Origin: an uncultured Candidatus Bathyarchaeia archaeon
GTDB taxonomy: Archaea; Thermoproteota; Bathyarchaeia; RBG-16-48-13; GCA-020345945
Length of the DNA: 64,000 bases
Assembly (NCBI GenBank): GCA_964495315.1
Contig: CAZBVH010000001.1
Location: 11,248 to 75,247, forward strand
Reading direction: 5' to 3'
Shown: positions 11,712 to 58,919 of the stretch, one piece after another
Layout of the letters: each line of letters opens with the position of its first letter
How positions within the stretch are numbered: position 1 is the stretch's first letter
Translations under genes and position numbers: made by a program
The notes under the pieces: generated by a model
The model's database searches: none
What the model saw: only the letters and a program-made list of their open reading frames with translations
What the model was told of the DNA's origin: nothing

Positions 11712-11769
11712 AAAGAATGCGCTGTATGCCGAAGTAAAAACCAATAAAGTCTCTGAAATGTGAGAAACC

Positions 11770-18626: not shown

Positions 18627-18629
18627 TCT

Positions 18630-32634: not shown

Positions 32635-33475
32635 CGGTAGTCTTCTCTCGCAACGCCAACGACTCACCTGTACCGCCTCTATGAAGCTTCACTATCTCCG
32701 CCATTATGCTGACCGCTATCTCCTCCGGGGTTTCCCCACCGATATCCAAACCGATGGGTGCATAGACGCGTCTTATAGCATCCTCAGGAACGCCCTCTCT
32801 CCTCAATTTCTCGAACACTTTTCTAACCTTCGTCTGACTGCCTATCATCCCAACATAGGCGGCCTTCGAGGTGATGGTGCGCCTGAGAACAAGCTCGTCA
32901 AGTGCATGCCCTCTGGTGACTATGACCACGTATGTAGACGGTGTTATCTCCACTCTGCTCAACGCGTCATCGAAGTTCTGGCAGATCGCCATGTCGGCTT
33001 CCGGAAACCTCTCTCTATTCGCGTATTCCTTCCTGTCATCAAGTACCACAACGCGGAAACCAAGCATAGCGCCTAGCTTCGTGAGCGGCAACGCGATGTG
33101 TCCGCCTCCTGCTATCAGTAGCGTGGGCTTATTCCGAATGGGGTCTAGGAGCAACTCCATCTCACCTCCACACACCATACCGGTCTCAGCAGCTTCTCCC
33201 TCACCAAGAGAGTACGTCACAACTCTTGGCTCTCCCTTGCTAAGCACTTTTCGAGATTCGGATATGACAAGGGCTTCGATCTTACCTCCACCGATCGTAC
33301 CGAAAATGCCTCCACTCTCTCTCACTATCATCTTGGCACCCACTTCTCTTGGAACGGAGCCCCTAGTCTTCACCACGGTGACTAAGACAAATCTCTCACC
33401 GTTTGCCACCAACTCGTTAGCCTTCTGAAGGATTTCACTCATTGTTCTCCCTCTTCGCCCCTGAAAATGCATCAC
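32615..33475 (-). CDS. XdhC/CoxI-family molybdenum cofactor insertion chaperone
   Basis: N-terminal XdhC domain (FVLVTVVKTRGSVPREVGAKMIV...GTIGGG) and C-terminal Rossmann-like domain (LLIAGGGHIA). Confidence 0.8.
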   Translation of the reverse strand: MMHFQGRRGRTMSEILQKANELVANGERFVLVTVVKTRGSVPREVGAKMIVRESGGIFGTIGGGKIEALVISESRKVLSKGEPRVVTYSLGEGEAAETGMVCGGEMELLLDPIRNKPTLLIAGGGHIALPLTKLGAMLGFRVVVLDDRKEYANRERFPEADMAICQNFDDALSRVEITPSTYVVIVTRGHALDELVLRRTITSKAAYVGMIGSQTKVRKVFEKLRREGVPEDAIRRVYAPIGLDIGGETPEEIAVSIMAEIVKLHRGGTGESLALREKTTVRPQRK

Positions 33476-33570
33476 GCGTTAAAGTTGGCTGTTCTCGCCC
33501 AAATCCTTCATGTTCCCCTCGATGCGATACGAGATCAGGTCTTCTGGATACAACTCTAATATCCTCGGTA

Positions 33571-36284: not shown

Positions 36285-37298
36285 ATGAGATCCTCAAGTA
36301 TTGACTTCGGTATATCGGAACCTCGTGGACGCGACATCGACATTATAGCGTTTGCCAAGGCGGCTGAGAGGCTTGGCTTCAACTCTATTCATGTGCGTGA
36401 CCACGTCTCCGCGCCCTTCGAGCCATTAACAATTCTAACGGCCATAGCCATGAAGACGGAGAAGTTGAAGGTTGCCACAAGCGTACTCGATATGAACCGG
36501 CGTAATCCAGCAATCACAGCACATATGACATCCACACTAGACCACCTTTCAGGCGGCCGGCTGATCCTTGGCGTCGGCTGTGGCATATGGAATTGGCCCA
36601 CCTACAACGTACCAAACATAGGAGACAAAGGGAGACTGAAGGTCAGCAGAAAGGTAACCAGAGCGAGAGAGGCCATCGAGGTCCTCAAGAAGTTCTGGAC
36701 TGAGCCGTCCGTCACGTACAAAGGAAGGTTCTATGGCTTTGAGGACGCCTCGATTGCAACGAAACCACTGCAGAGACCACATCCTCCCATCTGGGTTGCA
36801 GGGTACGGCAGGCGAATGAAGAGGATAGCTGCCGAGCTTGGAGACGGGTTCATCACTCAAACGATGCCACCAACAATGTACAAGGAGGAGGTCGAAAGTG
36901 TGAGATGCTCTGCAAAGGCGGCCGGTAGAGATCCGATGAAGATCAAGGGCATACTTGCAGCAATGACCGGGATCGGGCGGACCCATGATGAGGCTGTGGA
37001 GTCGATCAAGAAGGAAGCACAGAGCCTACTATTCCGTTCTGCTAGAGACCATGCTGACCATCACAACAGGTTGGCTGAACGGTTGGGCTACGGTGAGCCG
37101 CTTCCTTGGAAGAGACCGGAGGATATCTCTTCTGAGGACATAGGTCAAGTCTACCTCATCGGAACCCCTGAGGAGATCATCACACGTATAGAAGAGTACC
37201 TGAAAGGTGGAATGAGCTACCTCATCGTTATGGGTCCACAAACAACGGATAGCCTGAAACTCTTCTCCAATAAAGTCATATCATCCTTCAAGGATTAG
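36285..37298 (+). CDS. LLM-class flavin/F420-dependent oxidoreductase
   Basis: Luciferase-like monooxygenase TIM-barrel pattern (FAKAAERLGFNSIHVRDH...LGVGCG). Confidence 0.8.
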   Translation: MRSSSIDFGISEPRGRDIDIIAFAKAAERLGFNSIHVRDHVSAPFEPLTILTAIAMKTEKLKVATSVLDMNRRNPAITAHMTSTLDHLSGGRLILGVGCGIWNWPTYNVPNIGDKGRLKVSRKVTRAREAIEVLKKFWTEPSVTYKGRFYGFEDASIATKPLQRPHPPIWVAGYGRRMKRIAAELGDGFITQTMPPTMYKEEVESVRCSAKAAGRDPMKIKGILAAMTGIGRTHDEAVESIKKEAQSLLFRSARDHADHHNRLAERLGYGEPLPWKRPEDISSEDIGQVYLIGTPEEIITRIEEYLKGGMSYLIVMGPQTTDSLKLFSNKVISSFKD

Positions 37299-38435: not shown

Positions 38436-39473
38436 CTATTTGTTCACAAAGGACGGCATAATCTCTTCAGAGAAATTCTCCATAGCCTTTGCAAGATCAT
38501 GTGGCTCCGCAACAGAGAAGTTCAACATGAAGTGTCTCACATTCACGTCGACATATCTTTGAATTCCTTCGATCACATCGTCCACGTTTCCTATCAGCGA
38601 TGTTCCCATTATGTCTTCCACCGGGGAAGGTTTCCAGCCCCATTGCTTCAATAGTGATACCTTGTGAGCGTAGGCTGGCGTCTCCCTATACCTTCTGATA
38701 GCCACCTCACGGCTCTTTGCTAGGCTTACAGGGATCTCACGTACAAGCTCGATCTCAGAAAGTTCCCTGTCATATTTCCTCAAAGCATCTCTCAACTTGG
38801 GTTGCGCGTCTCTGAACTGCTCTGGGGACATCCCGGGAACCCAGCCCTGCGCGTATCTGGCTATTCGATCCAGGATTGCAGGGGTAGCTTTGTGCTCTCC
38901 TACAACAATCGGGAGGGGCCTCTGGATGGGTTTCGGGTAAAACTCAACGTCCGTGAATCTGACGTACTTTCCAGCAAAGCTCGCCTTTGGTTTCTCGAAG
39001 AGTTCTCTCAGGCCTTGGATTCCTTCATCAAGCCTAGTCCTTCGGTCTCCAATGTTGAGGGCATTAGATTCTTCACGGTACGCTCCGACTCCCACACCTA
39101 AGATCATCCGCCCATTGGAGAGTACGTCAAGGGTTGCCAGCTGCTTGGCGAGTATTACAAGTGCAGGTGTTCTCCAAGGAAGCACCAAGACTCCTGTTGC
39201 CAGTCTTACCTTCTCTGTTACGGCAGCTATGGCTGCTAGGCTGATCAAAGGCTCATAGAATGAGGGTTTGGGCTTAACGTCCATTATGTATTCCGGTGTT
39301 GTGATGTGGTCGTTGCCCCAGACCGAGTAATAGCCGAGTTCTTCTGCTCGCTTTCCGGCGTCAACGATCGTCTCTCTCGAGGCGAAGCCTGTGGGGACCA
39401 TTAACCCCTCTCTGCCTGTAGGGACCGATACGCCAAATCGAATCATCCTTTGCTCCCCATCCTGAAGCCCCAT
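38436..39473 (-). CDS. LLM-class F420-dependent oxidoreductase
   Basis: MIRFGVSVP...ELGYYSVWGNDH...LGVGVGAY luciferase-like pattern. Confidence 0.8.
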   Translation of the reverse strand: MGLQDGEQRMIRFGVSVPTGREGLMVPTGFASRETIVDAGKRAEELGYYSVWGNDHITTPEYIMDVKPKPSFYEPLISLAAIAAVTEKVRLATGVLVLPWRTPALVILAKQLATLDVLSNGRMILGVGVGAYREESNALNIGDRRTRLDEGIQGLRELFEKPKASFAGKYVRFTDVEFYPKPIQRPLPIVVGEHKATPAILDRIARYAQGWVPGMSPEQFRDAQPKLRDALRKYDRELSEIELVREIPVSLAKSREVAIRRYRETPAYAHKVSLLKQWGWKPSPVEDIMGTSLIGNVDDVIEGIQRYVDVNVRHFMLNFSVAEPHDLAKAMENFSEEIMPSFVNK

Positions 39474-39493: not shown

Positions 39494-40450
39494 TTGTTAC
39501 TCCTCTTGAGAGTGCGTTACCAAAAACCATTTCTAGTTTGGCGAGCGGTTCAAAGACTGAACAGATTGTCAGACCTTTTCAGACCTAGAGAATACTGCAG
39601 ACCGGAGAGCATAGAGGAAGCCATATCCCTGCTGGCAAGGTACGGAGAGAGAGCAAGACCGATTGCGGGCGGCACTGATCTCTTAGTCGAGAAGCCGAGT
39701 AAGGTTGAGTACCTGATTGATATCATGCGTCTGCCCTTGGCCTACATCAGAGAGAACCCTCATACTCGAGGCATAGGCATTGGTGCATTAACCACTGTCC
39801 GTGAGATAGAGACTTCAAGACTATTCGAAGATGCAAGGTTCAGGGTCTACAGCATACTGGCAGATGTAGCGAAAGAGATTGGATATGTGACGACGAGGAA
39901 CCTGGCCACCATTGGAGGCAACATCTGCAACGCTGTTCCTTCCGCAGACTTTCCGCCGGTATTGATAGCCATGGACGCCGAGGCGAGAATAGTGGGACCG
40001 AATGGAGAGAGGATTCTTCCCTTAGAGGGATTCTTTGTACAAGCCAGAAAGACGATCATGAGAAGCGACGAGTTGCTTACAGAGATCCAGGTACCAAGAC
40101 AACCTCCTCTCACCGGAGTAGCCTTCTCTAAACTTGGCAGGCTGCGTGTAGACATCGCTCTAGTAAACGTCGCCGCCCGAGTCACCCTTGGACCTGATGA
40201 AAGCTGCAAGGATGCCAGAATAGTGCTCGGAGCGGTAGCACCGACCCCCATCAGAGCCAAGAGAGCGGAAAATCTGCTCAAGGACAGGACCGTAGGAGAC
40301 GATATTATTGAAGAGGCAGCTCAAGCGGCGTCAGAGGAGACCAAGCCGATAAGTGATGTCCGTGCCTCCGCCGAGTATCGAAGAATGATGTCTAAAGTCC
40401 TAACGACTCATGTGCTCAAGCAGGCTCTTGAAAGAGCTGGAAGAGGGTGA
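39494..40450 (+). CDS. Xanthine dehydrogenase-family FAD-binding subunit (CoxM/XdhB-like)
   Basis: FAD-binding PCMH domain (AGGTDLLV, ATIGGN) and CO-dehydrogenase flavoprotein C-terminal domain. Conserved N-terminus aligns from TTG 39566 (MSDLFRPREYCRPESIEEA). Confidence 0.85.
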   Translation: MLLLLRVRYQKPFLVWRAVQRLNRLSDLFRPREYCRPESIEEAISLLARYGERARPIAGGTDLLVEKPSKVEYLIDIMRLPLAYIRENPHTRGIGIGALTTVREIETSRLFEDARFRVYSILADVAKEIGYVTTRNLATIGGNICNAVPSADFPPVLIAMDAEARIVGPNGERILPLEGFFVQARKTIMRSDELLTEIQVPRQPPLTGVAFSKLGRLRVDIALVNVAARVTLGPDESCKDARIVLGAVAPTPIRAKRAENLLKDRTVGDDIIEEAAQAASEETKPISDVRASAEYRRMMSKVLTTHVLKQALERAGRG

Positions 40451-40938
40451 CCGACCTGGGAAAGTTCTCAATCAGATTAAATGTAAACGGAGAAACCCGC
40501 GAGGTCATGGTGCGGCCTCACTGGACTCTACTATATGTTCTCAGGGAGGAACTCGGGCTTGCCGGACCGAAACTCAGCTGCGGCTCCGGCGAATGTGGAG
40601 CATGCACCGTTCTCATGGATGGAAAGGTGGTCCCCTCCTGTCTGGTACTGGCGGCACAGGCTGAAGGCAAAAAGATAATCACGATCGAGGGTCTCGCAGA
40701 CGGAACCACGCTACATCCCCTGCAGGAGGCATTCGTTGAACATGGTGCTGTCCAATGCGGCTTCTGCACGCCCGGAATGATCATCTCCGCGAAAGCGTTG
40801 CTGGATGAGAACCCTTGCCCGACAGAGGAGGATGTAAAGGAAGCTATTGCCGGAAACATATGCAGATGTACAGGCTACTCCAACATAGTGGAGGCCATAC
40901 TGGACGCTGCAAGCAAGATCAAGAGAGGTGTGAATTAA
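40447..40938 (+). CDS. Xanthine dehydrogenase-family [2Fe-2S] small subunit (CoxS-like)
   Basis: Plant-type ferredoxin Cys motif CGSGECGACTV and second-cluster motif QCGFCTPGM...CRCTGY. ATGA overlap with the upstream gene. Confidence 0.9.
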   Translation: MTDLGKFSIRLNVNGETREVMVRPHWTLLYVLREELGLAGPKLSCGSGECGACTVLMDGKVVPSCLVLAAQAEGKKIITIEGLADGTTLHPLQEAFVEHGAVQCGFCTPGMIISAKALLDENPCPTEEDVKEAIAGNICRCTGYSNIVEAILDAASKIKRGVN

Positions 40939-40939
40939 G

Positions 40940-43291
40940 ATGCCAGTTGTGGGCAAACGTGTACCAATGACGAAAACACATGATGCGTTTGAGAAAGTGA
41001 CGGGCAGGGCAACGTACACAACAGACCTTAAGTTACCCGGCATGTCGTATGCAAAGATCCTCAGAAGCCCTTATGCCCACGCGATAGTTGCAAGGGTTGA
41101 TGCGAGAAGAGCGGAGGGAGTCTCTGGCGTTGTGGCAGTGCTAACTTCAAAGGACGTATCTTCCGAACCGCACGGCACCTTTCCTCTGCCACACCCACAG
41201 GACTTGTATACACTACCCCCTATCGGCGGCAAGGTACGCTACGTGGGGGATCCGGTGGCTGCGGTGGCAGCCAAAGACATCGACACAGCTGAGGAAGCCC
41301 TAGAACTGATAGATGTGGAATACAAGGAGCTGCCCTCGGTCCTCGACCCTGAGGAGGCCCTCAAGCCTGATGCACCAAGGATACATCCGTGGGGCAACCT
41401 CGCAGTAGACCCCATGAACATAGAATTCGGCGACATTGAGAAAGGCTTCAAGGAAGCCGACTACGTATTTGAAGACACCTACAGAACATCGATTCAATGC
41501 CATGCCTGTGCTGAAACACATTCGTGCGTGGCAGACTGGGACGAGGATGGAAAGATAACGGTTTGGGCAGGCACTCAGGCTCCCTTTGCCACTCGAGAGT
41601 GCCTAGCCTTAGCTCTTGGCATCTCGGAAGATAGGATCAGGGTTGTGGTTCCGCCCGGCGGTTTCGGAGGGGGTTTCGGAAGCAAGAAGGAAGTCCAATC
41701 CTTGAGCCTGGACATTGCCGCTCTCTTGGCCAAGAAAGCGGGTAGACCAGTGAAACTGGTGTTCACTAGGGAAGAAGAGTTTGCTTGCACTGAAACACGC
41801 CACCCTACCGTTGTTCGCCTAAAAACTGGGGTAAAGAAAGATGGGACCCTGACAGTGAGGCACTCAAAGACGATCTACGATACTGGTGCATACGCCAGTC
41901 ACGGATCATTTGTCTTTACGCGTGCGATGCGCTCCCTTGCACTCTGGAGATGCGCCAACATAAAGTACGAGGGGCTTCTCGTCTACACCAACAAGGTTGT
42001 TGCTGGGGCAATGCGAGGATATGGAAACCCACAGCATACGTTTGCGGTTGAGCTTCAGAACGATCAGATCGCTGAAGAGCTGGGGATCGACCCGATGGAG
42101 TGGAGACTGAAGAATCACATACGAGTCGGTGACATAGATAAGGCACCAGGGCGCGGGGATCCTGGCAAACCCATAGGTGGTAGTAACTGGATACCGGCGT
42201 TGTATAAGATCCAGAGTTGTGGTCTCAGTGAATGCATAGTGAAGGGTGCGGAGAGCATCGGTTGGGAGAGAAGGAAGATGAAGCCTGGAGAGGTCGGGGA
42301 AACAAGGAAACGAGGTATAGGTATGGCTTGCGGTATGCATAGCAGCGGAACGATGCCTACTCCCCGATTCTCCAGCGTCTATATCAGGCTGAACGAGGAT
42401 GGCAGGATAGACATAATTTCAGGCGGGTGCGACCACGGAGGAACAGGACAGCATACCGTAATAGCGCAGATCGCCGCCGAAGAACTGGGGGTGCCCTTGG
42501 AAACGATAACTGTAACAGCCGAGGATACGGGCGTCACTCCATATGATTCAGGGACGGCTGGCGCCAGTGGTGGCACCTACACCGTAGGAGGGGCACTTGT
42601 AGAGGCGATAACGGATCTGAAGAAGAAGCTTCTCAGACAAGCTTCGACCATGTTGAAGGCACATGTCGAAGATCTGGAGATAGAGAAAGGGTACGTCCAT
42701 GTTAAAGGAGCCCCCGATAAGCAATTGTCCTTTAAAGACATAGCCGGGAAGGCTCGAGTAGACAGACATCCTTACACCTATCTGGAGGGTGATGGGTACT
42801 ACTATTATCCAGCCACAAATGCGCCTCCCTTCTTCGTGGACTTCGCGGAAGTGGAGGTGGACACCGAAACCGGGCAGGTCAAGGTGCTCAAGATAGTGGC
42901 GGCTCACGACAGCGGTAGGGCCATCAACCCAATGTTCTTTGAGGGACAGGTTCAAGGAGGGATACAGCAGGGCGTAGGATATGCCCTCACCGAGCGGCTC
43001 ATAGTAGATGAGGTGACTGGGATGCCGCTCAACCCCACATTCTTGGACTATAACGTGCTGAGGGCGGTCGACATGCCTGAGACCGAAGTGATAATTGTGG
43101 AGACGGAGGAGCCTACAGGCCCTCTTGGAGCGAAAGGGCTTGGTGAACCGTGCTCGGTCTCTGTTGCCCCAGCAGTAGTGAATGCCGTGTGCGACGCAAT
43201 AGGAGTACGCATCAAAGAGCTTCCAATAACGCCGGAGAAGGTCCTTCAAGCGTTAACAGAAAAAGAGCAACAAGAGCGAATTGCCCACTAG
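40940..43291 (+). CDS. Xanthine dehydrogenase/aldehyde oxidase-family molybdopterin-binding large subunit (CoxL-like)
   Basis: 783 aa with colinear a/b-hammerhead and MoCo-binding domains. Starts 2 nt after the small-subunit stop. Confidence 0.9.
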   Translation: MPVVGKRVPMTKTHDAFEKVTGRATYTTDLKLPGMSYAKILRSPYAHAIVARVDARRAEGVSGVVAVLTSKDVSSEPHGTFPLPHPQDLYTLPPIGGKVRYVGDPVAAVAAKDIDTAEEALELIDVEYKELPSVLDPEEALKPDAPRIHPWGNLAVDPMNIEFGDIEKGFKEADYVFEDTYRTSIQCHACAETHSCVADWDEDGKITVWAGTQAPFATRECLALALGISEDRIRVVVPPGGFGGGFGSKKEVQSLSLDIAALLAKKAGRPVKLVFTREEEFACTETRHPTVVRLKTGVKKDGTLTVRHSKTIYDTGAYASHGSFVFTRAMRSLALWRCANIKYEGLLVYTNKVVAGAMRGYGNPQHTFAVELQNDQIAEELGIDPMEWRLKNHIRVGDIDKAPGRGDPGKPIGGSNWIPALYKIQSCGLSECIVKGAESIGWERRKMKPGEVGETRKRGIGMACGMHSSGTMPTPRFSSVYIRLNEDGRIDIISGGCDHGGTGQHTVIAQIAAEELGVPLETITVTAEDTGVTPYDSGTAGASGGTYTVGGALVEAITDLKKKLLRQASTMLKAHVEDLEIEKGYVHVKGAPDKQLSFKDIAGKARVDRHPYTYLEGDGYYYYPATNAPPFFVDFAEVEVDTETGQVKVLKIVAAHDSGRAINPMFFEGQVQGGIQQGVGYALTERLIVDEVTGMPLNPTFLDYNVLRAVDMPETEVIIVETEEPTGPLGAKGLGEPCSVSVAPAVVNAVCDAIGVRIKELPITPEKVLQALTEKEQQERIAH

Positions 43292-45071: not shown

Positions 45072-45800
45072 CTATCTCCTCTCGGTCTCTCGCAGGAATT
45101 CCTTGGCGCCCTCTAGGAATAGATCGTTTGTACGCGCCTCTGCCGTGACATCCGACTTCAACTTCTTGCCTGCCGCCCGGATCTGCAATGTGGCTTGCCG
45201 GATCGCCTCCACCACACGGGGATGGTCCGGCTCGCCGGGTAATCCTATCGACTGCGCTAGGTCATTAGGTCCGAAGGCGAATAGTTCGAGGTGCTCTACC
45301 TTCAGGATCTCAGGCAGGTTCTGGAGGGCTTGGGCATCCTCCAGTAGGGCGATCGGCAGTATCTCCTCGTTGACTTGCTCCATGAAGGTGCGACGTTCTC
45401 GACCGCTCGCCTGCACGCCGTAGTTGTTGCCCCTGCCCCCACCGAAACTGCGACTCCCTCCAGGGGCGAAGAAGCAAGCCTTCGTGAAGGCTTCAGCGTC
45501 ATCCTTGGTGATGATGTGGGGTCCCATGATGCCCATGATCCCCCGGTCTAAGAACTGTAGTATCGTGGAGGGCTCGGTGTTCGAAACACGCGCAATGGGT
45601 GTGAGTCCAACTAGGTCAGCTGCCCGGCACATCTCCTCGATGTCCTTCAGAGTGAAGACGCCGTGCTCCCCATCCAGGAAGACGTAGTCGAAGCCAGCAT
45701 ACCCCATTAGCTCGATTAGAGTGGCTGAGGGGAAGACTAGTTGACAGCCGAAAGCCTTCTTCCCAGCTCTCATCTTAGCCTTGACCTTGTTAGTTCGCAT
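45072..45800 (-). CDS. HpcH/HpaI-family 2-keto-3-deoxy-acid aldolase
   Basis: GCQLVFPSATLIELMGYAGFDYVFLDGEHG and downstream metal-binding E/D pattern. Start set at MRTNKVKAK; the longer ORF adds 18 non-conserved residues. Confidence 0.8.
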   Translation of the reverse strand: MRTNKVKAKMRAGKKAFGCQLVFPSATLIELMGYAGFDYVFLDGEHGVFTLKDIEEMCRAADLVGLTPIARVSNTEPSTILQFLDRGIMGIMGPHIITKDDAEAFTKACFFAPGGSRSFGGGRGNNYGVQASGRERRTFMEQVNEEILPIALLEDAQALQNLPEILKVEHLELFAFGPNDLAQSIGLPGEPDHPRVVEAIRQATLQIRAAGKKLKSDVTAEARTNDLFLEGAKEFLRETERR

Positions 45801-46004
45801 GAAATCTCCCCATCCTAGAATCTCCATTCGAAATATTGGCTTTTTCCATTCCACTCCTGCATAACCTGCGAAAGTTGAAAGCTTCGATTGCCCGCTGATG
45901 GCACAGGTTTCAACAGTGTGCTACATTCAACTCCATTACTCCTATATCTATCCATAGAACGTATCCCCTGAGTTAAGTGTTCAATCCACGCTGAACTGCA
46001 GTCG

Positions 46005-48329: not shown

Positions 48330-49271
48330 TTAGATACACTCTATGATCTGCTCATGGATTTGCCTGATCCACCCAACGCTAGGCGTCTGATAGGATCTCA
48401 GGATGAAGAATGTGAATCCGATACGTTCAAACTCTCTTATGCTCCCGATGCACTCGTCAGCCGTTCCCGCAATCATCTCCCGGCGATTCAACCTATACCA
48501 AGCTTCGAATGGTTCGGAGAGCTTACTCATGTCGTAGATGCTTCTCATGTCTTTTCTCAGGCTGTCCTCATCTTTCCCGAGATGGACATGCGAGAACAAG
48601 GACTTCTCGATGCCATCGTAATCCCGGCCAACCGTGGTACAATGCCCCTTAAGGGCTTCCAGCTTCCGTTGACAGGTCTCGGGAGACCCGCCCAGGTTGC
48701 ATCTGTCCGCGTACTGGGCGACAACCCTCAGGAGGAACTTCTCCCCTCCTCCGCCGATCGTTATCGGTGGATACGGCTTCTGGACGGGCCGAGGCTCACA
48801 ATTGGCGTCCCTTATCGAGAAGTACTCTCCTTCATAGGTTGGGTGTTCCTCCGTCCACATCATCCGGATGATCTTGACGCCTTCCTCCAGCTGCCGTATC
48901 CTGGTTCGGGCATCAGGGAACTCATACCCATACGCCCTATACTCGGCTTCATGCCCACCCGCCCCGACTCCGAACTCTAGGCGTCCACCTGATACGACGT
49001 CCAGTGTGGCACTCATCTTCGCGACTAGTGCGGGGTTCCGGAAGGAGTTGCATAGTACGAGTGATCCGAGCCGTATCCTCTCCGTCACCGGCGCCAGAGC
49101 AGAGAGCAAGGTCCAACTTTCAAGCCTCGGTCCCCGCTGGAGAATGGCGTCGGCAAACCACATCGAGTGAAATCCCAAACGCTCGCATTCCTGAGTCTGT
49201 TTCCGTATCTCACCCCAGCTCTGTCGGCTCGTAACGAACATCCCGAACCTGAGATCCTTCAATACGATCAC
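48330..49271 (-). CDS. LLM-class F420-dependent oxidoreductase (third paralog)
   Basis: Luciferase-like pattern (CERLGFHSMWFADA...FGVGAGG). Confidence 0.8.
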   Translation of the reverse strand: MIVLKDLRFGMFVTSRQSWGEIRKQTQECERLGFHSMWFADAILQRGPRLESWTLLSALAPVTERIRLGSLVLCNSFRNPALVAKMSATLDVVSGGRLEFGVGAGGHEAEYRAYGYEFPDARTRIRQLEEGVKIIRMMWTEEHPTYEGEYFSIRDANCEPRPVQKPYPPITIGGGGEKFLLRVVAQYADRCNLGGSPETCQRKLEALKGHCTTVGRDYDGIEKSLFSHVHLGKDEDSLRKDMRSIYDMSKLSEPFEAWYRLNRREMIAGTADECIGSIREFERIGFTFFILRSYQTPSVGWIRQIHEQIIECI

Positions 49272-49394: not shown

Positions 49395-50591
49395 TCACTC
49401 TTCGCCTGTCTCTTCAGGCTCGCCCGGAGGGACCTCGTATAGCCCTGCGCCGCGACGACGCCCCCATGGGCTTGAACGTGCTTCAGGGGAGGGTTTCTCA
49501 ACGAGGAATCGCTCTAGCTTCCTGTCGTCGATAGTCATACCTAGGCCTGGGGAGTCGCCTAGGACAATCCATCCGTCCTCGATCCGATTGTCCACCTGCA
49601 TGACCACGTCTCTGCCCACGTCCACGACTTCCATCATCATGTGATTGGGCAGGGCTGCAGCTAGGTGTGCCATGTATTTTCCGGGGCAGTTCATCATCGA
49701 GACAGGGAGCTCGAAGGCGTAGGCCAGGTCTGCTACCTGCATCGCGCCCGTAATCCCTGATGTGCCAGATCCTATCTCAACCACGTCTACCGCCTCGTTG
49801 GCGATGAGGGGGGTGAACTCGCTGATCTCGTCTAGGTTCTCCCCTGTGGCAACCGCGGCTCTTATACTCTGAGAGACTTTACGGAGGCCGCGGTAGTCCC
49901 ACCGGCGGGCCGGTTCCTCGGCCCAGGTGATCTCGTAGTGCTCCTCAATCCGCCTTATGTTCCGGATTGCCTGTTTGGGCGACCAGTACTCGTTCGCATC
50001 GATGAGCAGGATAGGCTTCTTACCAGACTTGGAGAGCGCATCCCTCATTATGCCTATGCGCCGGATATCTGTCTCCCGGTCCAGACCGACCTTCAACTTG
50101 CCCGCCGAGATACCCCTCCGAGCCATGCCCTCGTAGAAGGTTTGCAGCTCCTCGTCTGAGAGGGGCATATCGATACCGCTGGCATAAGCCTTCACCATCC
50201 GCGTGGAGGCTCCCAGCGTCTTCCAGAGCGGTTCATCCTTTGCCTTGGCCTTCAGATCCCAGAGCGCTACATCAATTGCGGAGAGTGCGTCGTTGGCGAC
50301 TCCACGGTTCCCGCCTTTGAAGACAAAGTCTACCATCCTCTTCCAGAGTCCTCGCACACCCCTCGGATCCCGCCCTAGAAGCAAGTCTTCCACCATCGAG
50401 TGTATGTGACCTCTCGCACTGGGCGATCCCAGAGAGATGCCTGTGATGCCTTCATCGGTATCGATGAAGACGGCTAGACTCGCAGCCTTTTTCCTTCCTG
50501 TGGGACTGTTGGCGTCACCAAGGCGCCTCGTCATCTCAATCTCATACAGCTTGGTTCTTACGCCGGTTATCTTCATAATTCCCCTCCTCAC
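49395..50591 (-). CDS. Enolase-superfamily enzyme (mandelate racemase/muconate lactonizing family), third paralog
   Basis: MKITGVRT...DTDEGITGISLG N-domain and KVG, DAN, EEP barrel motifs. Probable start at MKITG (50576). Confidence 0.85.
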   Translation of the reverse strand: MRRGIMKITGVRTKLYEIEMTRRLGDANSPTGRKKAASLAVFIDTDEGITGISLGSPSARGHIHSMVEDLLLGRDPRGVRGLWKRMVDFVFKGGNRGVANDALSAIDVALWDLKAKAKDEPLWKTLGASTRMVKAYASGIDMPLSDEELQTFYEGMARRGISAGKLKVGLDRETDIRRIGIMRDALSKSGKKPILLIDANEYWSPKQAIRNIRRIEEHYEITWAEEPARRWDYRGLRKVSQSIRAAVATGENLDEISEFTPLIANEAVDVVEIGSGTSGITGAMQVADLAYAFELPVSMMNCPGKYMAHLAAALPNHMMMEVVDVGRDVVMQVDNRIEDGWIVLGDSPGLGMTIDDRKLERFLVEKPSPEARSSPWGRRRGAGLYEVPPGEPEETGEE

Positions 50592-50622: not shown

Positions 50623-52083
50623 CTAGTCGAATTGCAGACCTATTTCCTCCAAGTACTTCACGGCTTCCCTACGGCCGCTGAGGAACCTATCGGTCGGCTT
50701 CTGCTTGACATAGTCGTAACAGGCCAGATGAGGCTTGAAGAAGGATTCAGGCTCTGAGTATATGAGTATCCTTCTATCTCTGCTGAAGTCGGTCGATTGA
50801 AGCTTCTCCCTTCGAATCCGCCCCAGCATCTCGTCCAGGTCAGCCAGCTTGATCCTAGCCTTCAATGCCGCGTCGGAGACCTCGATCCCCCAGCTCACTA
50901 AAGGTGGTGGAGGGGTCCAGACGTAGAAGAGGTTGCCTCCCATCACCATTCCTCCTATGGTGCTGACAGCTGTGTACAGGATGTTCTCCACTGAAGCCAG
51001 GTCCTCTGCCTGTCCGCCGCTTCCACCGCTCGCCATCTCTATCGTGTTCTTGTGCCTGCGGAGGGCTTTCCTCATCGCGAAGCCGCACCAGGAGGCAGTC
51101 TTCTCGCCACCCCAAACATCCCATGACTCGCTCTTCTCCATGGGCTGCATGGAGCTGCGCCGCAGCTTCTCCAAGCCTGCCATATACTGGACGGAGTCGT
51201 GGTAGATCATCCAGGCTGCGATATTCCTGACGATGCCCTCTATCATGGCTCCCTCCCAGCCGCCGGCGAAGCCGCCTACCGACCCACCTGTACCCCCATT
51301 CATGCCGAAGCAACCATACTCATCAAAGTATATTGCTGCGGCGAGAAGGGTGGTCTCGACCTTCAGGTCAGGCAGGACAGAGAGGAGCAGCCCGTCGCTC
51401 GACCTGAGCCCCCTCTCCTCATCCTTAGGGGCAATCAGGGCCTCGGTGGTAGTGAGGATGGGATAGTTGCAGAGGGCAAGGCCGGCTCTCCCTGCGAGTC
51501 TCACACCTATCCTAGCCCTCTCGACCGCCTTTCGGGCCGCGTAGACGACCATCGGTGTGCCGTGAACCTCTCTCCCCATGATCCTGTGGTAGTTGAAGGT
51601 CTCCAGATAGTCGATCCTAGGTATCCTAACGAGTTCCTTAATCATGTTCTCAAGGGGCATGAGCACCTCATTCCAAGCGCTGTGACCTCCAACAACTATG
51701 TTCCTAGGTCTAGGGTCCTCAATCTCTCTCTTTGCCAGGGTTCGAGCATCCTTTTCCGTCCCCACGGTTATCTGGCTGGGGGCTTCCTTGCATGCCTCCC
51801 TTACCTCCTCCTCCGTGAATTGTATCGCTCTATTCGTGTTGATGCAGTAGACTCCCCTCTCAGAGAGGTACCCCACGGCTGCGTCGAAGAGCTGATCTGC
51901 GTAGGCGTTGTCAACGTCATAGAATCTCTCGTGTTCCCCCACCTTCAGCCCGTACTTCTCGGAGAGTTCCTGCATCTTCCGGAACATACCCATGTTCCAC
52001 TCTTTCTCATCCATCTTGGGTCCGTTCTGGGCCCTCTCAGCAACCTCAATCAGACTGATCGTGAGCATCCCTCCTCTGACCAT
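50623..52083 (-). CDS. MtmB-family (monomethylamine methyltransferase-like) protein lacking the pyrrolysine amber codon
   Basis: 486 aa uninterrupted. The N-terminal 120 aa parallel Methanosarcina MtmB (WNMGMFRKMQELSEKYGL...GVYCINTNRAIQFTEEEV versus WDLMKIPMKAMELKQKYGL...GIYCTDTHRIVKYTEDEI). The C-terminus (YLEEIGLQF) also parallels MtmB. Confidence 0.7.
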   Translation of the reverse strand: MVRGGMLTISLIEVAERAQNGPKMDEKEWNMGMFRKMQELSEKYGLKVGEHERFYDVDNAYADQLFDAAVGYLSERGVYCINTNRAIQFTEEEVREACKEAPSQITVGTEKDARTLAKREIEDPRPRNIVVGGHSAWNEVLMPLENMIKELVRIPRIDYLETFNYHRIMGREVHGTPMVVYAARKAVERARIGVRLAGRAGLALCNYPILTTTEALIAPKDEERGLRSSDGLLLSVLPDLKVETTLLAAAIYFDEYGCFGMNGGTGGSVGGFAGGWEGAMIEGIVRNIAAWMIYHDSVQYMAGLEKLRRSSMQPMEKSESWDVWGGEKTASWCGFAMRKALRRHKNTIEMASGGSGGQAEDLASVENILYTAVSTIGGMVMGGNLFYVWTPPPPLVSWGIEVSDAALKARIKLADLDEMLGRIRREKLQSTDFSRDRRILIYSEPESFFKPHLACYDYVKQKPTDRFLSGRREAVKYLEEIGLQFD

Positions 52084-52100
52084 TGAATTCGCGTTCTCGA

Positions 52101-52116
52101 AATTATAAGTTAACGT
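52101..52116 (-). promoter_or_regulatory. Archaeal-type BRE/TATA (cgTTAAC-TTATAATT on the minus strand) for the MtmB-like gene
   Basis: TATA-like TTATAATT lies 18-25 nt upstream of the ATG and is preceded by an A/G-rich BRE-like element, consistent with a leaderless archaeal transcript. Confidence 0.4.
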
Positions 52117-52282
52117 GCACTTGCCTCAGACTCTTAAGGGGCTGCATACAGGGTGGCTGGATCAGTTGAGGAACAACCTCATGTGCAAGTCTTCTCGACG
52201 GACTAAGCCAACTTGGCGCAGATGATCTACCCTGAGAGGTGCGGAACGCTGGCATTCGCTCAGCTTTGCCGGGTTGAGCCTG

Positions 52283-53269
52283 TCAGCCCGGCTCTACGTT
52301 CAGGAAGATTCGTATCAGAAACCCTATGACAAAGGATAACCCTGCTACTCCCAAGCTGATTAGGGACATCTCTAGAAACCTCCTCCTGAAAGGAATGCTC
52401 CTGGTGACGGATACGTAGAAGGTGAAGAGAAGAATCACGAAGATTCCGCTCAGAATCGAGACTCCGAGGCAGAAGTAGATGTTGGAGAAGAGCAGGAATG
52501 GGGAGATTAAGAGCAAGACCGTGAAGACATAGGCTATGCCTGTATATATCGAGGCCCTAATAGGGTTCCGCTCCCCTCCCTCAGTCTTGACGGATAGGTA
52601 TTCAGACGCAGCCATCGATAGAGATGCAGCGACTCCCGTAATTGAGCCTACCAAGGCGATAAGACCTGCGTTTTGAAGGGCGAGGGTTAGCCCTGCAAGC
52701 GTGCCTGTAAGCTCTACGAGGGCGTCGTTGAGACCGAGAACCACGGAGCCAACGTATCTCAGATGCTCCTCGTCGATCAAGCCTATCAGGCTCTCCTCAT
52801 GTTCACCCTCATCCTCAAGGATGCTTCTAGCTCCATGAAAGGATTCGGTGAACTTTTCATACACTTCCTGAGCTCGTCCCTCATCTCTCTCCATTAGCTT
52901 GACTCCAAAGGTCAAACCAAATATTCTGGCGATGAGGAGGTACTTCCATATCTTCAGCCTGTCTGGGCTCACATCTCTGCGGCTGTGCTTCTTCCAGAAC
53001 TTGTAGTGTCTCAGCTCATCCCTTGAGATGTGTCGCAGAACGTCTCTATTGCGAGGTTCCTTAACCGCATCTGACAGCCTCTCATAGATGAGGTGCTCTG
53101 TGATCTCATTCTTCTGAGCAGCCAACACTGCTCTCTCTGTCTCTCTGTCCGACATTCCCATTCTCGCGGTATTCTTCTCCGTAGATCTCTTTTCAAACTT
53201 CCTAGATTGAACCTGTGCGGTATTCAAGGGTTGAGTTCTCTCCAAAGGATGTCTTGCGAATCGTCTCAA
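52283..53269 (-). CDS. VIT1/CCC1-family iron/manganese transporter with N-terminal ferritin-like domain
   Basis: N-terminal ferritin-like four-helix region (ExxH pairs) fused to a C-terminal 5-TM VIT1 domain. Confidence 0.75.
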   Translation of the reverse strand: MRRFARHPLERTQPLNTAQVQSRKFEKRSTEKNTARMGMSDRETERAVLAAQKNEITEHLIYERLSDAVKEPRNRDVLRHISRDELRHYKFWKKHSRRDVSPDRLKIWKYLLIARIFGLTFGVKLMERDEGRAQEVYEKFTESFHGARSILEDEGEHEESLIGLIDEEHLRYVGSVVLGLNDALVELTGTLAGLTLALQNAGLIALVGSITGVAASLSMAASEYLSVKTEGGERNPIRASIYTGIAYVFTVLLLISPFLLFSNIYFCLGVSILSGIFVILLFTFYVSVTRSIPFRRRFLEMSLISLGVAGLSFVIGFLIRIFLNVEPG

Positions 53270-53371: not shown

Positions 53372-55247
<1,876 letters not shown>

Positions 55248-55276
<29 letters not shown>

Positions 55277-56993
55277 GTTGTGACTCGTAGATCTCTTGGT
55301 AGATGGGGCTTGTCTTAATCAGTTCCCTGTGGTTGCCTTCAGCCACGACTCTGCCATGATCCAGTACTACTATCTTGTCCGCTCCGAGTACTGTGCTTAT
55401 GCGTTGTGCTATCACGAAGTTTGTGCGTCCCCTCATCAGTTCATCTAGCTCACGTCGTATCTTGACTTCTGTCTCGACGTCTACTGAGCTTGTGCTGTCG
55501 TCGAGGATCAGGATCTCTGGTTTCACCAAGAGTGCGCGGGCGATCGCGACTCGCTGTCGCTGCCCACCTGAAAGGTTGACTCCTCGTTGTCCAACAGGTG
55601 TATCGTAGCCTTGCGGGAAGCTTGTTATGAACTCGTGAGCTTGGGCTGCTTTCGCTGCGACCATGACCTCCTCATCGGTAGCGTCTTCCCTGCCATACCT
55701 TATGTTGTCCCGTATCGTGCCTGAGAATAGAACGGTCTCTTGGAGGCTTATCCCAATGTGGGCGCGAAGCGATTGCTGTGTTACATCCCTGAGGTCGGTA
55801 CCATCAATAGTTATCCTTCCTCTCGTCACATCGTAGAACCGAGGGATGAGATTGACGAGACTGGTCTTTCCTGAGCCTGTTGAGCCCAAGATGGCGATCG
55901 TCTGCCCTGGCTCAGCCACCAAGTTTATGTCCTCTAGGACGGGGTCTGTGCAGTCCTTGATGTAGCTGAAGCAGACACCCTCGAAGACCACTCTCCCTCT
56001 CACATCTGTCAAGGGTCTGGCGTTGGGTTTGTCCTGTATGTCTGGGATGGAGTCCATGACCTCCATGACTCTCACGGCTGATGCGTTTGCCGCTGATATT
56101 GGACCTGCAATCATAGCCAGCATGAAGAGGGGAAACATCGTTGAGATAAGATAGTTGACGAAGGCCACTATCTCGCCTAAGGTCAGTCTGCCCGCTATGA
56201 TCTGGGATCCTCCGAAGTAGATGATGACCACGATTCCTAAGTTGATGAGCAGTAGCATCATAGGCATAAGGGCCGAGAGTAGCCTGACAACCTTGACCTC
56301 CTGCTCCATAAGGTCATCGTTAGCCGCTCCGAACCTTTTTACCTCGTAGTCTCTCCTAGAGAAAGCTTTGACTACTCTCATACCTGCAAGGTTCTCCTCT
56401 AGGACTTGGTTTAGCCGCTCAAGTCTCTTTTGGATCGCTGCAAACATTGGATGAATCCTTCGGGCGAGGATCGTTGTGAGAAGAAGTATGAATAGCATCA
56501 TGGGGAGTATCATCGTCGCGAGCATGCTGTTCGTTGCTAGCATCAGGATGATGCTCCCTGCTATCATCAGAGGTGCACGGACCAGCATGCGTAGTGAGAT
56601 CTGGACGGCTGCTTGAAGCCGGTTCATGTCGCTGGTGAGGCGCACGATCAGCTCTCCGGTTCGGAAGTCGTCAAGGTTTCTGAAGCTGAAGGTCTGCACC
56701 TTGCGATAGGCTGCGCTGCGGAGGTCTGCGGCGAAACCTTGGGCTGTGCGGACCGAGTAGAAGGTGTTCGCGACTGCCAGTAGGGCGCTAACAATTGAGA
56801 CGCCGATCATGATGAGGCTGGTGTTGGCTATCACCTGCACATTCTTGGTTGCAACACCTTGGTCGACGATCACCTGGACGAGTCTAGGTATCGCCAGATC
56901 CAGAACGACCGTGATAGACAGAAGTGTGACTGCAAGAATTGTATCCCGACTGTAAGGTTTCAGATACCCTAAGGCACGTCTAAGGTCGTTCAT
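55248..56993 (-). CDS. ABC exporter, fused permease/ATP-binding protein (heterodimer partner)
   Basis: 6-TM domain plus NBD (GSTGSGKTS, LSGGQRQR). Overlaps the downstream partner by 29 nt. Confidence 0.9.
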
Positions 56994-57517
56994 TCGGGGT
57001 TCTCCAATTGCTTGTTAATCTTCTCGATCTCCTTGGTTGTCTCTTCGAGGATTCCTCGCACTCTCGCAGAGGCTTCCCGATTATCCACTATGAGGGGATT
57101 GATCTTCTCCAACGCGTTTAGAAGTCGGTAGTTAGCTTCGAAGACCTCTTCTCGCATTCCTTGAAAGAGTCTCCAATATATCTTCTGGACGGAATGGTAG
57201 TGGGACTTGATGTGTGTCCATGATCTTTTGCGTTTCTCGACTTCTCTCAGTCCAGCTTGTGTAAGGCTGTATTTCTTGAGTGTTGGAAGGTCAGAGCTTA
57301 CCTGCTCTATCAGTCTCTGCTCCTCCAGTATCGCGAGGAGAGGATACATTGAGCCAGGGCTGGGTCTCCAATCGGTATAATGCTCAATCTCATCCATAAG
57401 CTCCGAGCCTGACATGGACTCCTGCTTCAGGATGTCCAATGTCATATGGTGGAGCATTCCTTTTGGTACACCGATTCCCTTGCCTAGGCGTCTTCTCTGG
57501 CTGCCGCTTCGATGCAT
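56990..57517 (-). CDS. PadR-family transcriptional regulator
   Basis: wHTH with the PadR signature (SGSELMDEIEHYT...SPGSMYPLL). Overlaps the ABC gene start by 4 nt. Confidence 0.8.
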   Translation of the reverse strand: MHRSGSQRRRLGKGIGVPKGMLHHMTLDILKQESMSGSELMDEIEHYTDWRPSPGSMYPLLAILEEQRLIEQVSSDLPTLKKYSLTQAGLREVEKRKRSWTHIKSHYHSVQKIYWRLFQGMREEVFEANYRLLNALEKINPLIVDNREASARVRGILEETTKEIEKINKQLENPE

Positions 57518-57917: not shown

Positions 57918-58919
57918 GTGCTGCTGGTTCAGTTCAAGTCACTCGATAATGTCCGTCATGTTGGACTGGTCAGCAGAGATGGGCGTTCACTGCAGGTCCT
58001 GCGTGCAACGAGAAGCATCTATGACCTAGCCTTGGAGGCAGGGGAGGCGAAGACAGGGCTGGAACGATTAGTCGGGGATCGCATTGGTGACGAGGAAGTC
58101 GACTATGATCAAGTCATCTCGGAGAAGCGCCTCCTCCCGCCTCTCGACCACCCCGACCCCGCCCACTGCTACGTCACTGGCACTGGTCTTACCCATCTTG
58201 GCAGTGCTCAGGCACGCAACACGATGCACGCCAAACTGCAAGATGAACAGGCTCAGTTAACGGACTCGATGAAGATGTTCAAGTTAGGGCTTGAGGGCGG
58301 TAAACCCGCATCCGGCAAGGTGGGTGTCCAACCGGAGTGGTTCTACAAGGGCGACGGCGGCTGCCTCGTCCCTCCTGGACACCCGCTTGAGCTGCCCCCG
58401 TTCGCCCTCGATGGCGGTGAAGAGGCAGAGGTCGTCGGTCTCTACGTCATCTCCCGATCTGGCGATGTTCTGCGCGTGGGCTTTACACTCGGCAACGAGT
58501 TCTCCGACCACGTGCTGGAGCGGAAGAACTACCTCTACCTAGCCCACTCAAAACTTCGCAACTGCTCGATCGGGCCTGAACTGCTGACCGGCGACCTGCC
58601 CACCAGCATCTCTGGCACCGTTCGACTGCTGCGCGGTGGCGATGAGCTGTGGGCAGAGACCTTTCTGACCGGTGAAGCAAACATGTCGCACAGCATCGCC
58701 AACCTCGAGTACCACCACTTCAAGTACGACGGGTTCCGCCGCTCTGGGGATGTACACTGCCACTTCTTCGGTGCGGCTACCCTAAGCTTCTCAGCCGGAG
58801 TCAACGCCAGACCGGGCGACATCTTCGAGATTTCTGCGCCACCATTCAGCCGCCCGTTGATCAATCCACTTGTTGCCAGTGGATTGAGCGGCACTCTGGT
58901 TACAGTGCAGCCGCTTTGA
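57918..58919 (+). CDS. Fumarylacetoacetate hydrolase (FAH)-family protein
   Basis: The C-terminal 190 aa carry the FAH pattern (EAEVVGLYVI...VGFTLGNEFSDHVLE). The codon usage is strongly GC3-rich, unlike the neighbouring genes. Confidence 0.5.
   Translation: MLLVQFKSLDNVRHVGLVSRDGRSLQVLRATRSIYDLALEAGEAKTGLERLVGDRIGDEEVDYDQVISEKRLLPPLDHPDPAHCYVTGTGLTHLGSAQARNTMHAKLQDEQAQLTDSMKMFKLGLEGGKPASGKVGVQPEWFYKGDGGCLVPPGHPLELPPFALDGGEEAEVVGLYVISRSGDVLRVGFTLGNEFSDHVLERKNYLYLAHSKLRNCSIGPELLTGDLPTSISGTVRLLRGGDELWAETFLTGEANMSHSIANLEYHHFKYDGFRRSGDVHCHFFGAATLSFSAGVNARPGDIFEISAPPFSRPLINPLVASGLSGTLVTVQPL

Follow-up and report, generated by a model that had tools for sequence, protein, structure and literature searches.

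At the locus studied here, a 64-kb stretch of DNA analysed as a whole (hereafter the window), the minus strand carries an ORF of 486 aa from its first ATG (50623..52083), which runs to a TAG stop codon without any internal stop. The initial annotation had described it as an uninterrupted homologue of the monomethylamine (MMA) methyltransferase MtmB, devoid of the in-frame UAG that encodes pyrrolysine (Pyl). This observation of a Pyl-free MtmB-like gene is confirmed, as is the length of the ORF. The end given for it, 52125, has to be corrected: this position is the boundary set by the upstream in-frame stop, and the ORF starts at 52083. The true start is probably Met6 (52068), giving a protein of 481 aa, since orthologues begin M-I-S-L-L-E-V, matching Met6, and the NCBI copy (P0001) is 481 aa long. 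Among the closest relatives, identity to CP070773.1 is 77% and the remaining close loci are all in Bathyarchaeia MAGs, on which the assignment to Bathyarchaeia is based; orthologues L001 and L005 are 87% and 77% identical to the window protein, respectively.

Direct reading of the upstream sequence reveals an archaeal promoter-like GTTAAC-TTATAA (BRE-like and TATA-like; 52114..52103, minus strand), whose 3′ end lies 19 nt from the first ATG and ~34 nt from the conserved start. A TATA/BRE-like element had indeed been reported about 20 nt 5′ of the ATG. The upstream non-coding DNA of L001 and L005 keeps the block AACTTATAAT(T/C)T(C/T)GAGAA, and we regard the conserved element as a putative promoter. 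Further upstream on the same strand (52283..53269) lies a gene for a transporter of the VIT1 family (PF01988), which is also found upstream in L001; the N-terminus of the product is rubrerythrin/ferritin-like and matches PF02915 weakly. As the 199-nt gap between the two genes holds the promoter-like element, they probably belong to separate transcription units.

On the other side, an enolase-superfamily MR_MLE gene of the mandelate-racemase/acid-sugar-dehydratase type (49395..50591, minus strand; PF13378 and PF02746) probably has its real start at the ATG at 50576 (thus 49395..50576). A 46-nt gap separates this ATG from the end of the MtmB-like gene, and a GGAGG of its own precedes it by 7 nt. 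In NCBIfam the product comes closest to talarate/galactarate dehydratase (167 bits, under the 500-bit cut-off), and its PDB matches are 2ovl, 5xd9 and 2pp0. No terminator-like site was found in the intervening gap by a promoter/terminator scan of bacterial type, whose output was at shuffle level and hence uninformative. The two genes are probably co-transcribed. The idea that the MR_MLE protein is a betaine epimerase (HpbD-like), providing a link to a betaine demethylase, was considered and rejected: its best matches fall in the acid-sugar dehydratase/cycloisomerase-type subgroup of mandelate racemases. An F420-dependent luciferase-like (LLM) oxidoreductase gene follows 123 nt downstream of the MR_MLE gene (48330..49271, minus strand; PF00296, 190 bits; TIGR03560, 234.7 bits for a cut-off of 231.4), and the same position is kept in L001.

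These three neighbours had been identified correctly, all on the minus strand, and the two downstream ones had been called an odd combination. The order MtmB-like/MR_MLE/LLM is kept in the closest orthologue L001 only, and the association of MR_MLE with the clade defined below gives p ~0.04–0.11 against the local background. A strong MR_MLE enrichment, entertained as a candidate signal, was downgraded on the ground that the window itself contains three MR_MLE genes and that the MR_MLE neighbours elsewhere are not orthologous (24–47% mutual identity next to clade-A genes). Given how many genes of this kind these genomes contain, the enolase-family neighbour does not rise convincingly above background and is weakly informative.

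The nearest B12-binding gene is located 31 kb away (18630..19283, plus strand) and encodes the sole candidate methyl acceptor in the window. Its designation as a corrinoid protein proved to be genuine: the product carries B12-binding and B12-binding_2 domains (PF02310 and PF02607), matches MttC (7xcn_M), MtmC (3ezx), 4jgi and 1y80 in the PDB, and is also MtgC/MtbC/TIGR02370-like. It is of the methyltransferase, methylamine/betaine type, with no MT1 gene beside it. Directly upstream is a gene for a divergent URO-D or MtaA-CmuA-like protein (17454..18626, plus strand), recognised by PF01208 over residues 191–296 only (E 4e-11) and by TIGR01463 at 28.8 bits, far under the 235-bit cut-off; a search of its sequence against the PDB gave no match. 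It may act as an MT2 (methylcobamide methyltransferase) or else be an MT1 of the O-demethylase type. No RamA-type corrinoid activase was seen among the annotated ORFs of the window.

The window protein is a member of the MtmB superfamily without an amber codon. The profile search proposed in the initial annotation returned the MtmB family (PF05369) at 130.6 bits for a cut-off of 25 (E 9.6e-38), with a match limited to residues 11–295, that is to profile positions 3–284 of 450 (the N-terminal two thirds), and sequence alignment and fold prediction agree with it. An NCBIfam search gave no match for this protein. MtmB1 (1l2q) was found in the PDB at E 1e-19 with phmmer, and the AlphaFold2 model (pLDDT 91.1, pTM 0.90) has MtmB structures as its best fold matches (1nth, 1l2q and 1tv2; Foldseek E ~1e-28, TM 0.77–0.83). 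In the alignment to MtmB1, likewise suggested, Pyl202 is replaced by Cys205, located within AGRAGLALCNYP and encoded by TGC (51471..51469).

Within the family the Pyl column is occupied by C, T, A, V, L or S, and Cys205 is conserved only within a subclade. Pyl decoding is very unlikely here, because UAG terminates more genes of the window than any other stop codon (24/50), the MtmB-like gene among them. The 64 kb contain no tRNA and no Rfam match, nor any pyl-like gene among the annotated ORFs. In a control search seeded with MtmB1, the matches listed were all true Pyl MtmBs, appearing as 201-aa fragments ending at UAG. Finally, MtmB1 residues E205, E229 and E259, which we take to be those supporting Pyl chemistry, align to P208, L233 and G263 of the window protein.

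In the family tree, the window protein falls in a well-supported, mainly Bathyarchaeia clade of long-form proteins (~480 aa; clade A), which together with clade B constitutes a subfamily (YYP) with 100% bootstrap. The two parts of the family differ sharply in context: a B12-binding (corrinoid-protein) gene is directly adjacent to none of the 25 clade-A members versus 87/103 in the rest of the family (47/63 in clade B), a contrast with a Fisher p of ~1e-13 to 1e-16 that reflects few evolutionary events only. At the base of clade A, two members (L018 and L090) still stand in operons where a B12-binding gene is followed first by a clade-B and then by a clade-A paralogue, MtrH being encoded alongside, and already have the clade-specific indels. 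This missing corrinoid gene, which had gone unmentioned, is a more telling feature of the context than the enolase-family neighbour. Pyl-free MtmB homologues as such were already known; what is new here is the placement in an orphan, long-form, mainly Bathyarchaeia clade.

Conservation is unevenly distributed along the protein. The N-terminal core is kept and invariant across clades A, B, C and MtmB1: R17, C80, R85, E93, the AGRxG just before the Pyl column (A197 to G201) and D230, R227 being also among the residues common to all branches. Residues typical of the YYP subfamily and common to clade B are kept as well (H134, E161, Y207, P208); Cys80, His134 and Glu161 form a possible metal site. 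In the C-terminal part, the derived subclade containing the window protein lost features that clades B, C and MtmB1 conserve: the [SA]G[PL][GC]T-E loop, the glutamate of the LLE that follows it (Tyr370 in the window protein) and the RxxR...Q-T-P-L-E loop (here TPPPP). The xxE[AS]R loop, likewise conserved there, is not kept, and Arg413 was lost as well, a residue common to clades B and C where MtmB1 has Ile. The window protein reads EDLASVE...ILY370 and WTPPPPLVSW, where MtmB1 reads AGPCTEMCLLE...GMEARM. Two clade-specific insertions are present, at 303–330 (pLDDT <50 at 310–324) and at 430–445 (with invariant D436, R438 and Y442). Since the remodelled motifs are common to all clade-A members, they are a feature of the clade and not a sequencing artefact.

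With confidence barely better than balanced, we favour the view that the gene encodes a Pyl-independent MtmB-fold methyltransferase of the long-form clade, acting on a methylated substrate other than MMA together with a corrinoid protein encoded elsewhere. The clade would go back to a gene duplication within an operon for a corrinoid methyltransferase, followed by dispersal. The substrate would bind at the barrel mouth, lined at the C-terminal ends of the β-strands by Cys80, His134, Glu161/Asn164, Cys205/Tyr207 and Asp230; its methyl group would be transferred to the Co(I) of the distant corrinoid protein, for which 18630..19283 is a candidate, and a second methyltransferase, MtrH-like or URO-D-like, would pass it to a C1 carrier. 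By analogy with MtqB, discussed below, a quaternary amine is one possible substrate; another, suggested by the surrounding genes, is a sugar or sugar acid bearing a methyl group. Corrinoid dependence is favoured by membership of the superfamily, the kept core residues, the corrinoid adjacency of clade B, the basal corrinoid operons and the corrinoid protein of the window, and also because MtqB, the only characterised non-Pyl MtmB, is corrinoid-dependent. It is weakened by the 0/25 adjacency, the loss of the C-terminal motifs, the partial Pfam match and the want of a RamA-type activase among the annotated ORFs.

Alternatively, the MtmB fold may have been neofunctionalised. The enzyme would then work without a corrinoid partner and catalyse different chemistry within the surrounding sugar-acid catabolism, its substrate being an acid or hydroxy-acid derived from carbohydrate; we judge this possible though unlikely. 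Besides the lack of adjacent corrinoid genes throughout clade A, the remodelled C-terminus with its insertions at 303–330 and 430–445 argues for it, the motifs lost being those of the corrinoid-linked branches and of MtmB1. So do the neighbours: MR_MLE genes recur on independent contigs (window/L001, L002, L004, L006, L009, L083), an FAA hydrolase gene is directly upstream in L006 and L088, and GFO/IDH/MocA, UxuA-like, Zn-ADH, 2-hydroxyacid dehydrogenase, DHDPS, KDPG aldolase with PfkB, and acid-sugar kinase genes are also recurrent. However, the genomes are saturated with such genes, as the three MR_MLE copies of the window and the marginal enrichment illustrate, the neighbouring MR_MLEs are the divergent ones described above, and gene order is shared with the 87%-identical orthologue only. 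Moreover, residues at active-site positions common to corrinoid-linked clade B are kept, and basal clade members remain within corrinoid operons.

More broadly, and as a rather improbable scenario, the clade may have left the classical three-component system altogether, either as a demethylase of methylated sugars or sugar acids or through corrinoid-protein-independent new chemistry in sugar-acid catabolism. In the demethylase version, substrates such as 4-O-methyl-glucuronate or O-methyl-deoxyhexoses from plant and algal polymers would donate methyl groups to the Wood-Ljungdahl pathway, and the sugar skeleton would be consumed by the MR_MLE, LLM and aldolase neighbours.

The literature offers a more specific model. 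The initial annotation had considered non-Pyl MtmB proteins much less explored than non-Pyl MttB relatives; barely explored they still are, although not wholly unexplored. MtqB of Methanococcoides methylutens Q3c, a non-Pyl tetramethylammonium/choline:corrinoid methyltransferase, was reported in 2026 (PMC13044021), and in ‘Ca. Formimonas warabiya’ the protein that dichloromethane induces most strongly is another non-Pyl MtmB (PMC9768040). An MtqB-like enzyme demethylating choline, tetramethylammonium or betaine seems doubtful to us for the window gene. The MtqB pocket is described as enriched in aromatic and sulfur-containing side chains, among them a conserved Met-Cys, and characterised non-Pyl MttB relatives all use quaternary amines (PMC13044021); the barrel-mouth positions of the window protein include C80, C205, M261, W137, F163 and Y207, in agreement with such a pocket. 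Yet Cys205 is not conserved beyond the subclade, mtqB adjoins mtqC (RS04770/RS04775) whereas the window gene has no corrinoid neighbour, and MtqB sits in a small clade near Pyl MtmBs (PMC13044021), while the window protein is ~25% identical to MtmB1 and belongs to the distinct YYP subfamily.

Lastly, a genuine MMA methyltransferase, with Cys205 replacing Pyl or with a UAG-containing isoform, is what database and MAG annotations imply (mtmB, monomethylamine:corrinoid methyltransferase) and what Bathyarchaeia papers count (PMC10321748), but it is very improbable and largely refuted by the sequence, given the lack of any in-frame TAG where TAG is the main stop codon, the variable Pyl column, the P208, L233 and G263 noted above and the absence of an adjacent mtmC gene.

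These results bear on current practice, as such genes are routinely counted as ‘mtmB’ and taken as evidence of MMA use by Bathyarchaeia (PMC10321748, PMC8407382). An MMA enzyme of the Pyl type is excluded for the window protein, which belongs to a distinct, orphan and structurally remodelled clade. Identifying its substrate would provide a second function for the barely explored non-Pyl MtmB superfamily and change the inference of methylotrophy for one of the most abundant groups of sediment archaea. Should the clade no longer need a corrinoid protein, it would clearly exemplify how the fold of a methyltransferase of the methanogenesis type can be put to use in other chemistry.

Among known systems, the non-Pyl MttB superfamily (MtgB, MtpB, MtcB, MtyB; COG5598) presents a parallel theme of Pyl-free paralogues with other methyl donors. 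Its likeness to the window protein is a distant one of fold (Foldseek E 1e-7 to 1e-10, TM ~0.45): it constitutes another Pfam family (PF06253), and no sequence-level homology to the window protein was detected.

MtmB1 of Methanosarcina barkeri (1L2Q/1NTH) is much closer, with the same TIM-barrel fold over its full length (Foldseek E 4e-28, TM 0.77–0.83) and a shared N-terminal core (C80, R85, E93 and D230, with AGRxG immediately preceding the Pyl position), at an identity of ~25% in the MAFFT alignment and 18% in the Foldseek structural alignment. It differs by Pyl202 in place of Cys and by its C-terminal AGPCT-E, LLE and ME-AR motifs, absent from the window protein, which has two insertions and one loop deletion relative to it. 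Unlike MtmB1, the window protein is encoded without an adjacent corrinoid gene, in an organism whose main stop codon is TAG.

The nearest relatives outside the clade are the clade-B YYP homologues (~460 aa, 32–39% identity) of Chloroflexota, Spirochaetales, Neomoorella stamsii, Archaeoglobi and Bathyarchaeia. They share H134, E161, F163-N164, Y207-P208 and the superfamily core with the window protein, but keep the S[GE][PL][GC]T-E motif, the RxxR...QTPLE loop, E370 and R413, and are devoid of the 430–445 insertion.

MtqB, finally, is set apart from the window protein by its published description: it is encoded beside MtqC in a methanogen, whereas the window protein is an orphan of another, long-form clade in a non-methanogenic, Bathyarchaeia-type genome. 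Both are Pyl-free and of the same superfamily, and MtqB shows that such proteins can be corrinoid-dependent methyltransferases with substrates other than MMA.

The MtmB-like gene was initially annotated as an uninterrupted, pyrrolysine-free member of the MtmB family, an interpretation that our analysis supports overall. The ORF runs without interruption over 50623..52083 on the minus strand (486 aa, ATG start, TAG stop); the end coordinate first proposed, 52125, is an in-frame stop boundary upstream of the ORF and not a start codon. The true start is probably Met6 (52068), since this position matches the orthologue N-termini (M-I-S-L-L-E-V), the NCBI database copy of the protein is 481 aa long and residues 1–5 have pLDDT <50 in the AlphaFold2 model. 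The archaeal promoter-like element proposed upstream corresponds to GTTAAC-TTATAA at 52114..52103. Orthologues of 87% and 77% identity carry this block upstream as well, amid otherwise diverged non-coding DNA, which supports its reading as a putative archaeal promoter.

Against the PF05369 (MtmB) profile, the protein scores 130.6 bits (gathering threshold 25), but only residues 11–295 align, over profile positions 3–284 of 450; zero NCBIfam models matched. Among solved structures, the sole real sequence match is Methanosarcina barkeri MtmB1 (E 1e-19). Alignment of the two proteins places pyrrolysine X202 of MtmB1 at Cys205 in AGRAGLALCNYP (codon TGC, 51471..51469), with no amber codon. The AlphaFold2 model, built from an alignment of 59 homologues, is confident (pLDDT 91.1, pTM 0.90). 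Because its top PDB matches are three MtmB entries (E ~1e-28, TM 0.77–0.83), MttB and MtgB structures being far lower (TM ~0.45), the MtmB fold is predicted to span the entire protein and not its N-terminal part alone.

The family is small: a full phmmer run over 1.84 billion cluster representatives found 539 matches with E ≤ 1e-3, of which 43 reach E ≤ 1e-30. Scanning the species genomes of GTDB gave 78 loci, the closest all from Bathyarchaeia MAGs (best CP070773.1, 77% identity) and the remoter ones from Chloroflexota, Spirochaetales, Neomoorella stamsii, Archaeoglobi, Nitrospirota and others. Multiple paralogues within single genomes are frequent, and CP070773.1, JAZFSF01, JAOZHB01 and Chloroflexota JAMCWG01 carry three to nine family members each. 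When 130 sequences are clustered by neighbour joining (100 bootstraps, MtmB1 as root), 89 of them form a subfamily with 100% support, called YYP here, all with the motif AGRxG-x-A-x-x-[YLF]-Y-P around the Pyl column. Within it, 25 loci sequences and the window protein form clade A (99% support, 478–492 aa), with Bathyarchaeia loci throughout; one Bathyarchaeia MAG carries a tandem pair of clade-A paralogues (L012, 8489..11437). The innermost subclade, whose members are 50% or more identical to the window protein, has Cys in the Pyl column. Outside this subclade the position holds T, A, V, L or S, which argues that Cys205 is a subclade feature and not a catalytic residue of the whole family.

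To score gene context, all loci were searched by phmmer with proteins of the window, and B12-binding genes within 1.5 kb were counted. Such a gene was found at 40/40 loci of clade C (the remaining branch) and 47/63 of clade B (the other YYP homologues, ~460 aa), whereas none of the 25 clade-A genes has one directly adjacent (Fisher p ~1e-13 to 1e-16 for clade A versus the rest, the clade representing few independent events). At two clade-A loci, L015 and L018, a corrinoid gene lies 1.5–2 kb off, beside a clade-B paralogue in between. The clade-A pattern was confirmed on Pfam-annotated metagenome contigs, which add independent contexts (L001, L002/3, L083/84, L085, L086/87, L088, L089). By exception, basal members lie in an operon ordered B12-binding gene, clade-B MtmB-like gene (~460 aa), clade-A MtmB-like gene (~490 aa) (L018, 3493..7205; L090, 4823..9541, adjoined by an MtrH gene). 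This order points to tandem duplication within such a corrinoid methyltransferase operon as the origin of clade A, its later members having dispersed.

Clade A retains the residues common to all branches and MtmB1 (R17, C80, R85, E93, A197-G-R-x-G201, D230) as well as H134, E161, F163-N164 and Y207-P208 of the YYP subfamily. In the AlphaFold2 model, all these residues sit at or just past the C-terminal ends of the barrel strands, the location of active sites in TIM barrels. The C-terminal third is remodelled, which is why the Pfam profile covers two thirds only. In the window protein, the loop S[GE][PL][GC]T-E (AGPCTE in MtmB1) reads EDLASVE, the LLE glutamate that follows it is replaced by Tyr370, the RxxR...Q-T-P-L-E loop is reduced to WTPPPP, and Arg413, kept in clades B and C and Ile in MtmB1, is Leu. 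Of the two clade-A insertions, 303–330 is a variable, low-confidence loop (pLDDT <50 at 310–324) and 430–445 a conserved segment with D436, R438 and Y442 invariant. Basal, operon-embedded members already carry these indels but still retain Arg413 and a G-S-E version of the T-E loop; the indels alone are therefore no sign of lost corrinoid dependence.

The best-supported reading, at about even chances, is that the window protein is an orphan methyl-donor:corrinoid methyltransferase (MT1) with a substrate other than monomethylamine and a corrinoid protein acting in trans. The candidate partner would be the corrinoid protein of the window, encoded 31 kb from the MtmB-like gene. Its MtgC/MtbC/MttC-like gene comes immediately after a divergent URO-D/MtaA-CmuA-like gene, the two spanning 17454..19283; FtsX permease and metallo-beta-lactamase genes flank the pair, with no recognisable MT1 gene beside it. 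The pair may represent an orphan corrinoid protein with its methylcobamide methyltransferase (MT2), or an O-demethylase-type MT1 with its corrinoid protein.

The main rival, which we consider unlikely, is that the derived subclade has taken on a reaction of carbohydrate-acid metabolism that needs no corrinoid protein. The odd neighbours initially reported are indeed present: an enolase-superfamily gene (MR_MLE) with its own GGAGG lies 46 nt downstream, no terminator-like site being found in between, and an F420-type LLM oxidoreductase gene (TIGR03560) starts 123 nt past it. The entire order VIT1, MtmB-like, MR_MLE, LLM, ThuA is repeated only in L001 (87% identical). MR_MLE genes also occur within 3–4 kb of clade-A genes in L002, L004, L006, L009 and L083, with a mutual identity of only 24–47%, and an FAA hydrolase gene lies directly upstream in L006 and L088. 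Further recurrent neighbours (GFO/IDH/MocA, UxuA-like, Zn-ADH, 2-hydroxyacid dehydrogenase, DHDPS, KDPG aldolase with PfkB, acid-sugar kinase, FAD_oxidored) give a set that looks like sugar-acid catabolism. The window background is itself dense in such genes, so that the MR_MLE association (p ~0.04–0.11 against this background) is only suggestive of a pathway, and the pathway idea drawn from the neighbourhood is weak.

The window region is unusually rich in sugar-acid and hydroxy-acid catabolic genes: three MR_MLE (1..807, cut by the window edge; 30881..31963; 49395..50591), an RraA-like aldolase (30009..30698), an HpcH/HpaI aldolase (45072..45854), a GguC/AraD1-family protein (57918..58919; 500 bits, over cut-off) and an aldehyde:ferredoxin oxidoreductase, AFOR (5995..7785). 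Three LLM oxidoreductases, probably F420-dependent, are encoded within 13 kb (36285..37298, 38436..39473, 48330..49271). XdhC and MoeA genes lie near a molybdenum-hydroxylase cluster of xanthine/CO-dehydrogenase type (32615..34851 and 39494..43291), which encodes FAD-binding, 2Fe-2S and MoCo-binding subunits. At 53372..57517, a PadR-family regulator gene, whose stop overlaps the start of the first exporter, precedes a pair of ABC exporter genes that overlap each other and encode ATPase–permease fusions of 634 and 581 aa, which looks like a regulated efflux operon. At the locus of the 77% orthologue (L005), the downstream gene is not MR_MLE but a 313-aa ORF (11520..12461) with zero Pfam or NCBIfam matches. 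In L002, a 494-aa protein with weak SelA/class-V aminotransferase similarity (11494..12978) is encoded directly downstream of the clade-A gene, followed by a sulfite-oxidase-type Mo domain protein; upstream lies a divergent aminotransferase/2-hydroxyacid dehydrogenase/MR_MLE/Zn-ADH/MFS unit.

A quaternary-amine role specifically like that of the non-Pyl relative MtqB, a sub-case of the orphan MT1 reading, is less likely still. In Methanococcoides methylutens Q3c, MtqB removes methyl groups from tetramethylammonium and choline and passes them to MtqC, the corrinoid protein encoded next to it (PMC13044021); the clade-A genes directly adjoin no corrinoid gene.

The protein database offers a control: its entries for genuine Pyl MtmBs are fragments of 201 aa that end where the amber codon stands. 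The 85 close homologues of the window protein are, without exception, either complete or simple partials. TAG is the commonest stop among 50 plausible window genes (24 TAG, 19 TGA, 7 TAA; window G+C 52.8%) and also ends the MtmB-like gene. A stop usage dominated by TAG is not the pattern of Pyl-decoding archaea. A tRNA and Rfam search of the 64-kb window, too short a stretch to settle pylTSBCD, gave zero matches, and stop usage is the stronger clue. MtmB1 E205, E229 and E259, which we take to be residues around Pyl, align with P208, L233 and G263, consistent with a substrate activation different from that of MtmB1 if this presumed placement of the three acidic residues is correct. We essentially exclude that the protein acts as a true monomethylamine methyltransferase or is made as a Pyl isoform.

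The existence of non-Pyl MtmB homologues is long established, and a function was first published for one of them, MtqB, in 2026 (PMC13044021); in 'Ca. Formimonas warabiya', the protein most induced by dichloromethane is a non-Pyl member of the MtmB superfamily (PMC9768040). What is new here is a pyrrolysine-free homologue from a distinct, orphan, C-terminally remodelled clade, mainly of Bathyarchaeia; it offers a tractable biochemical target. Bathyarchaeia genome papers have counted such genes as mtmB, that is, as monomethylamine use (PMC10321748, PMC8407382), a routine annotation that the present finding corrects.
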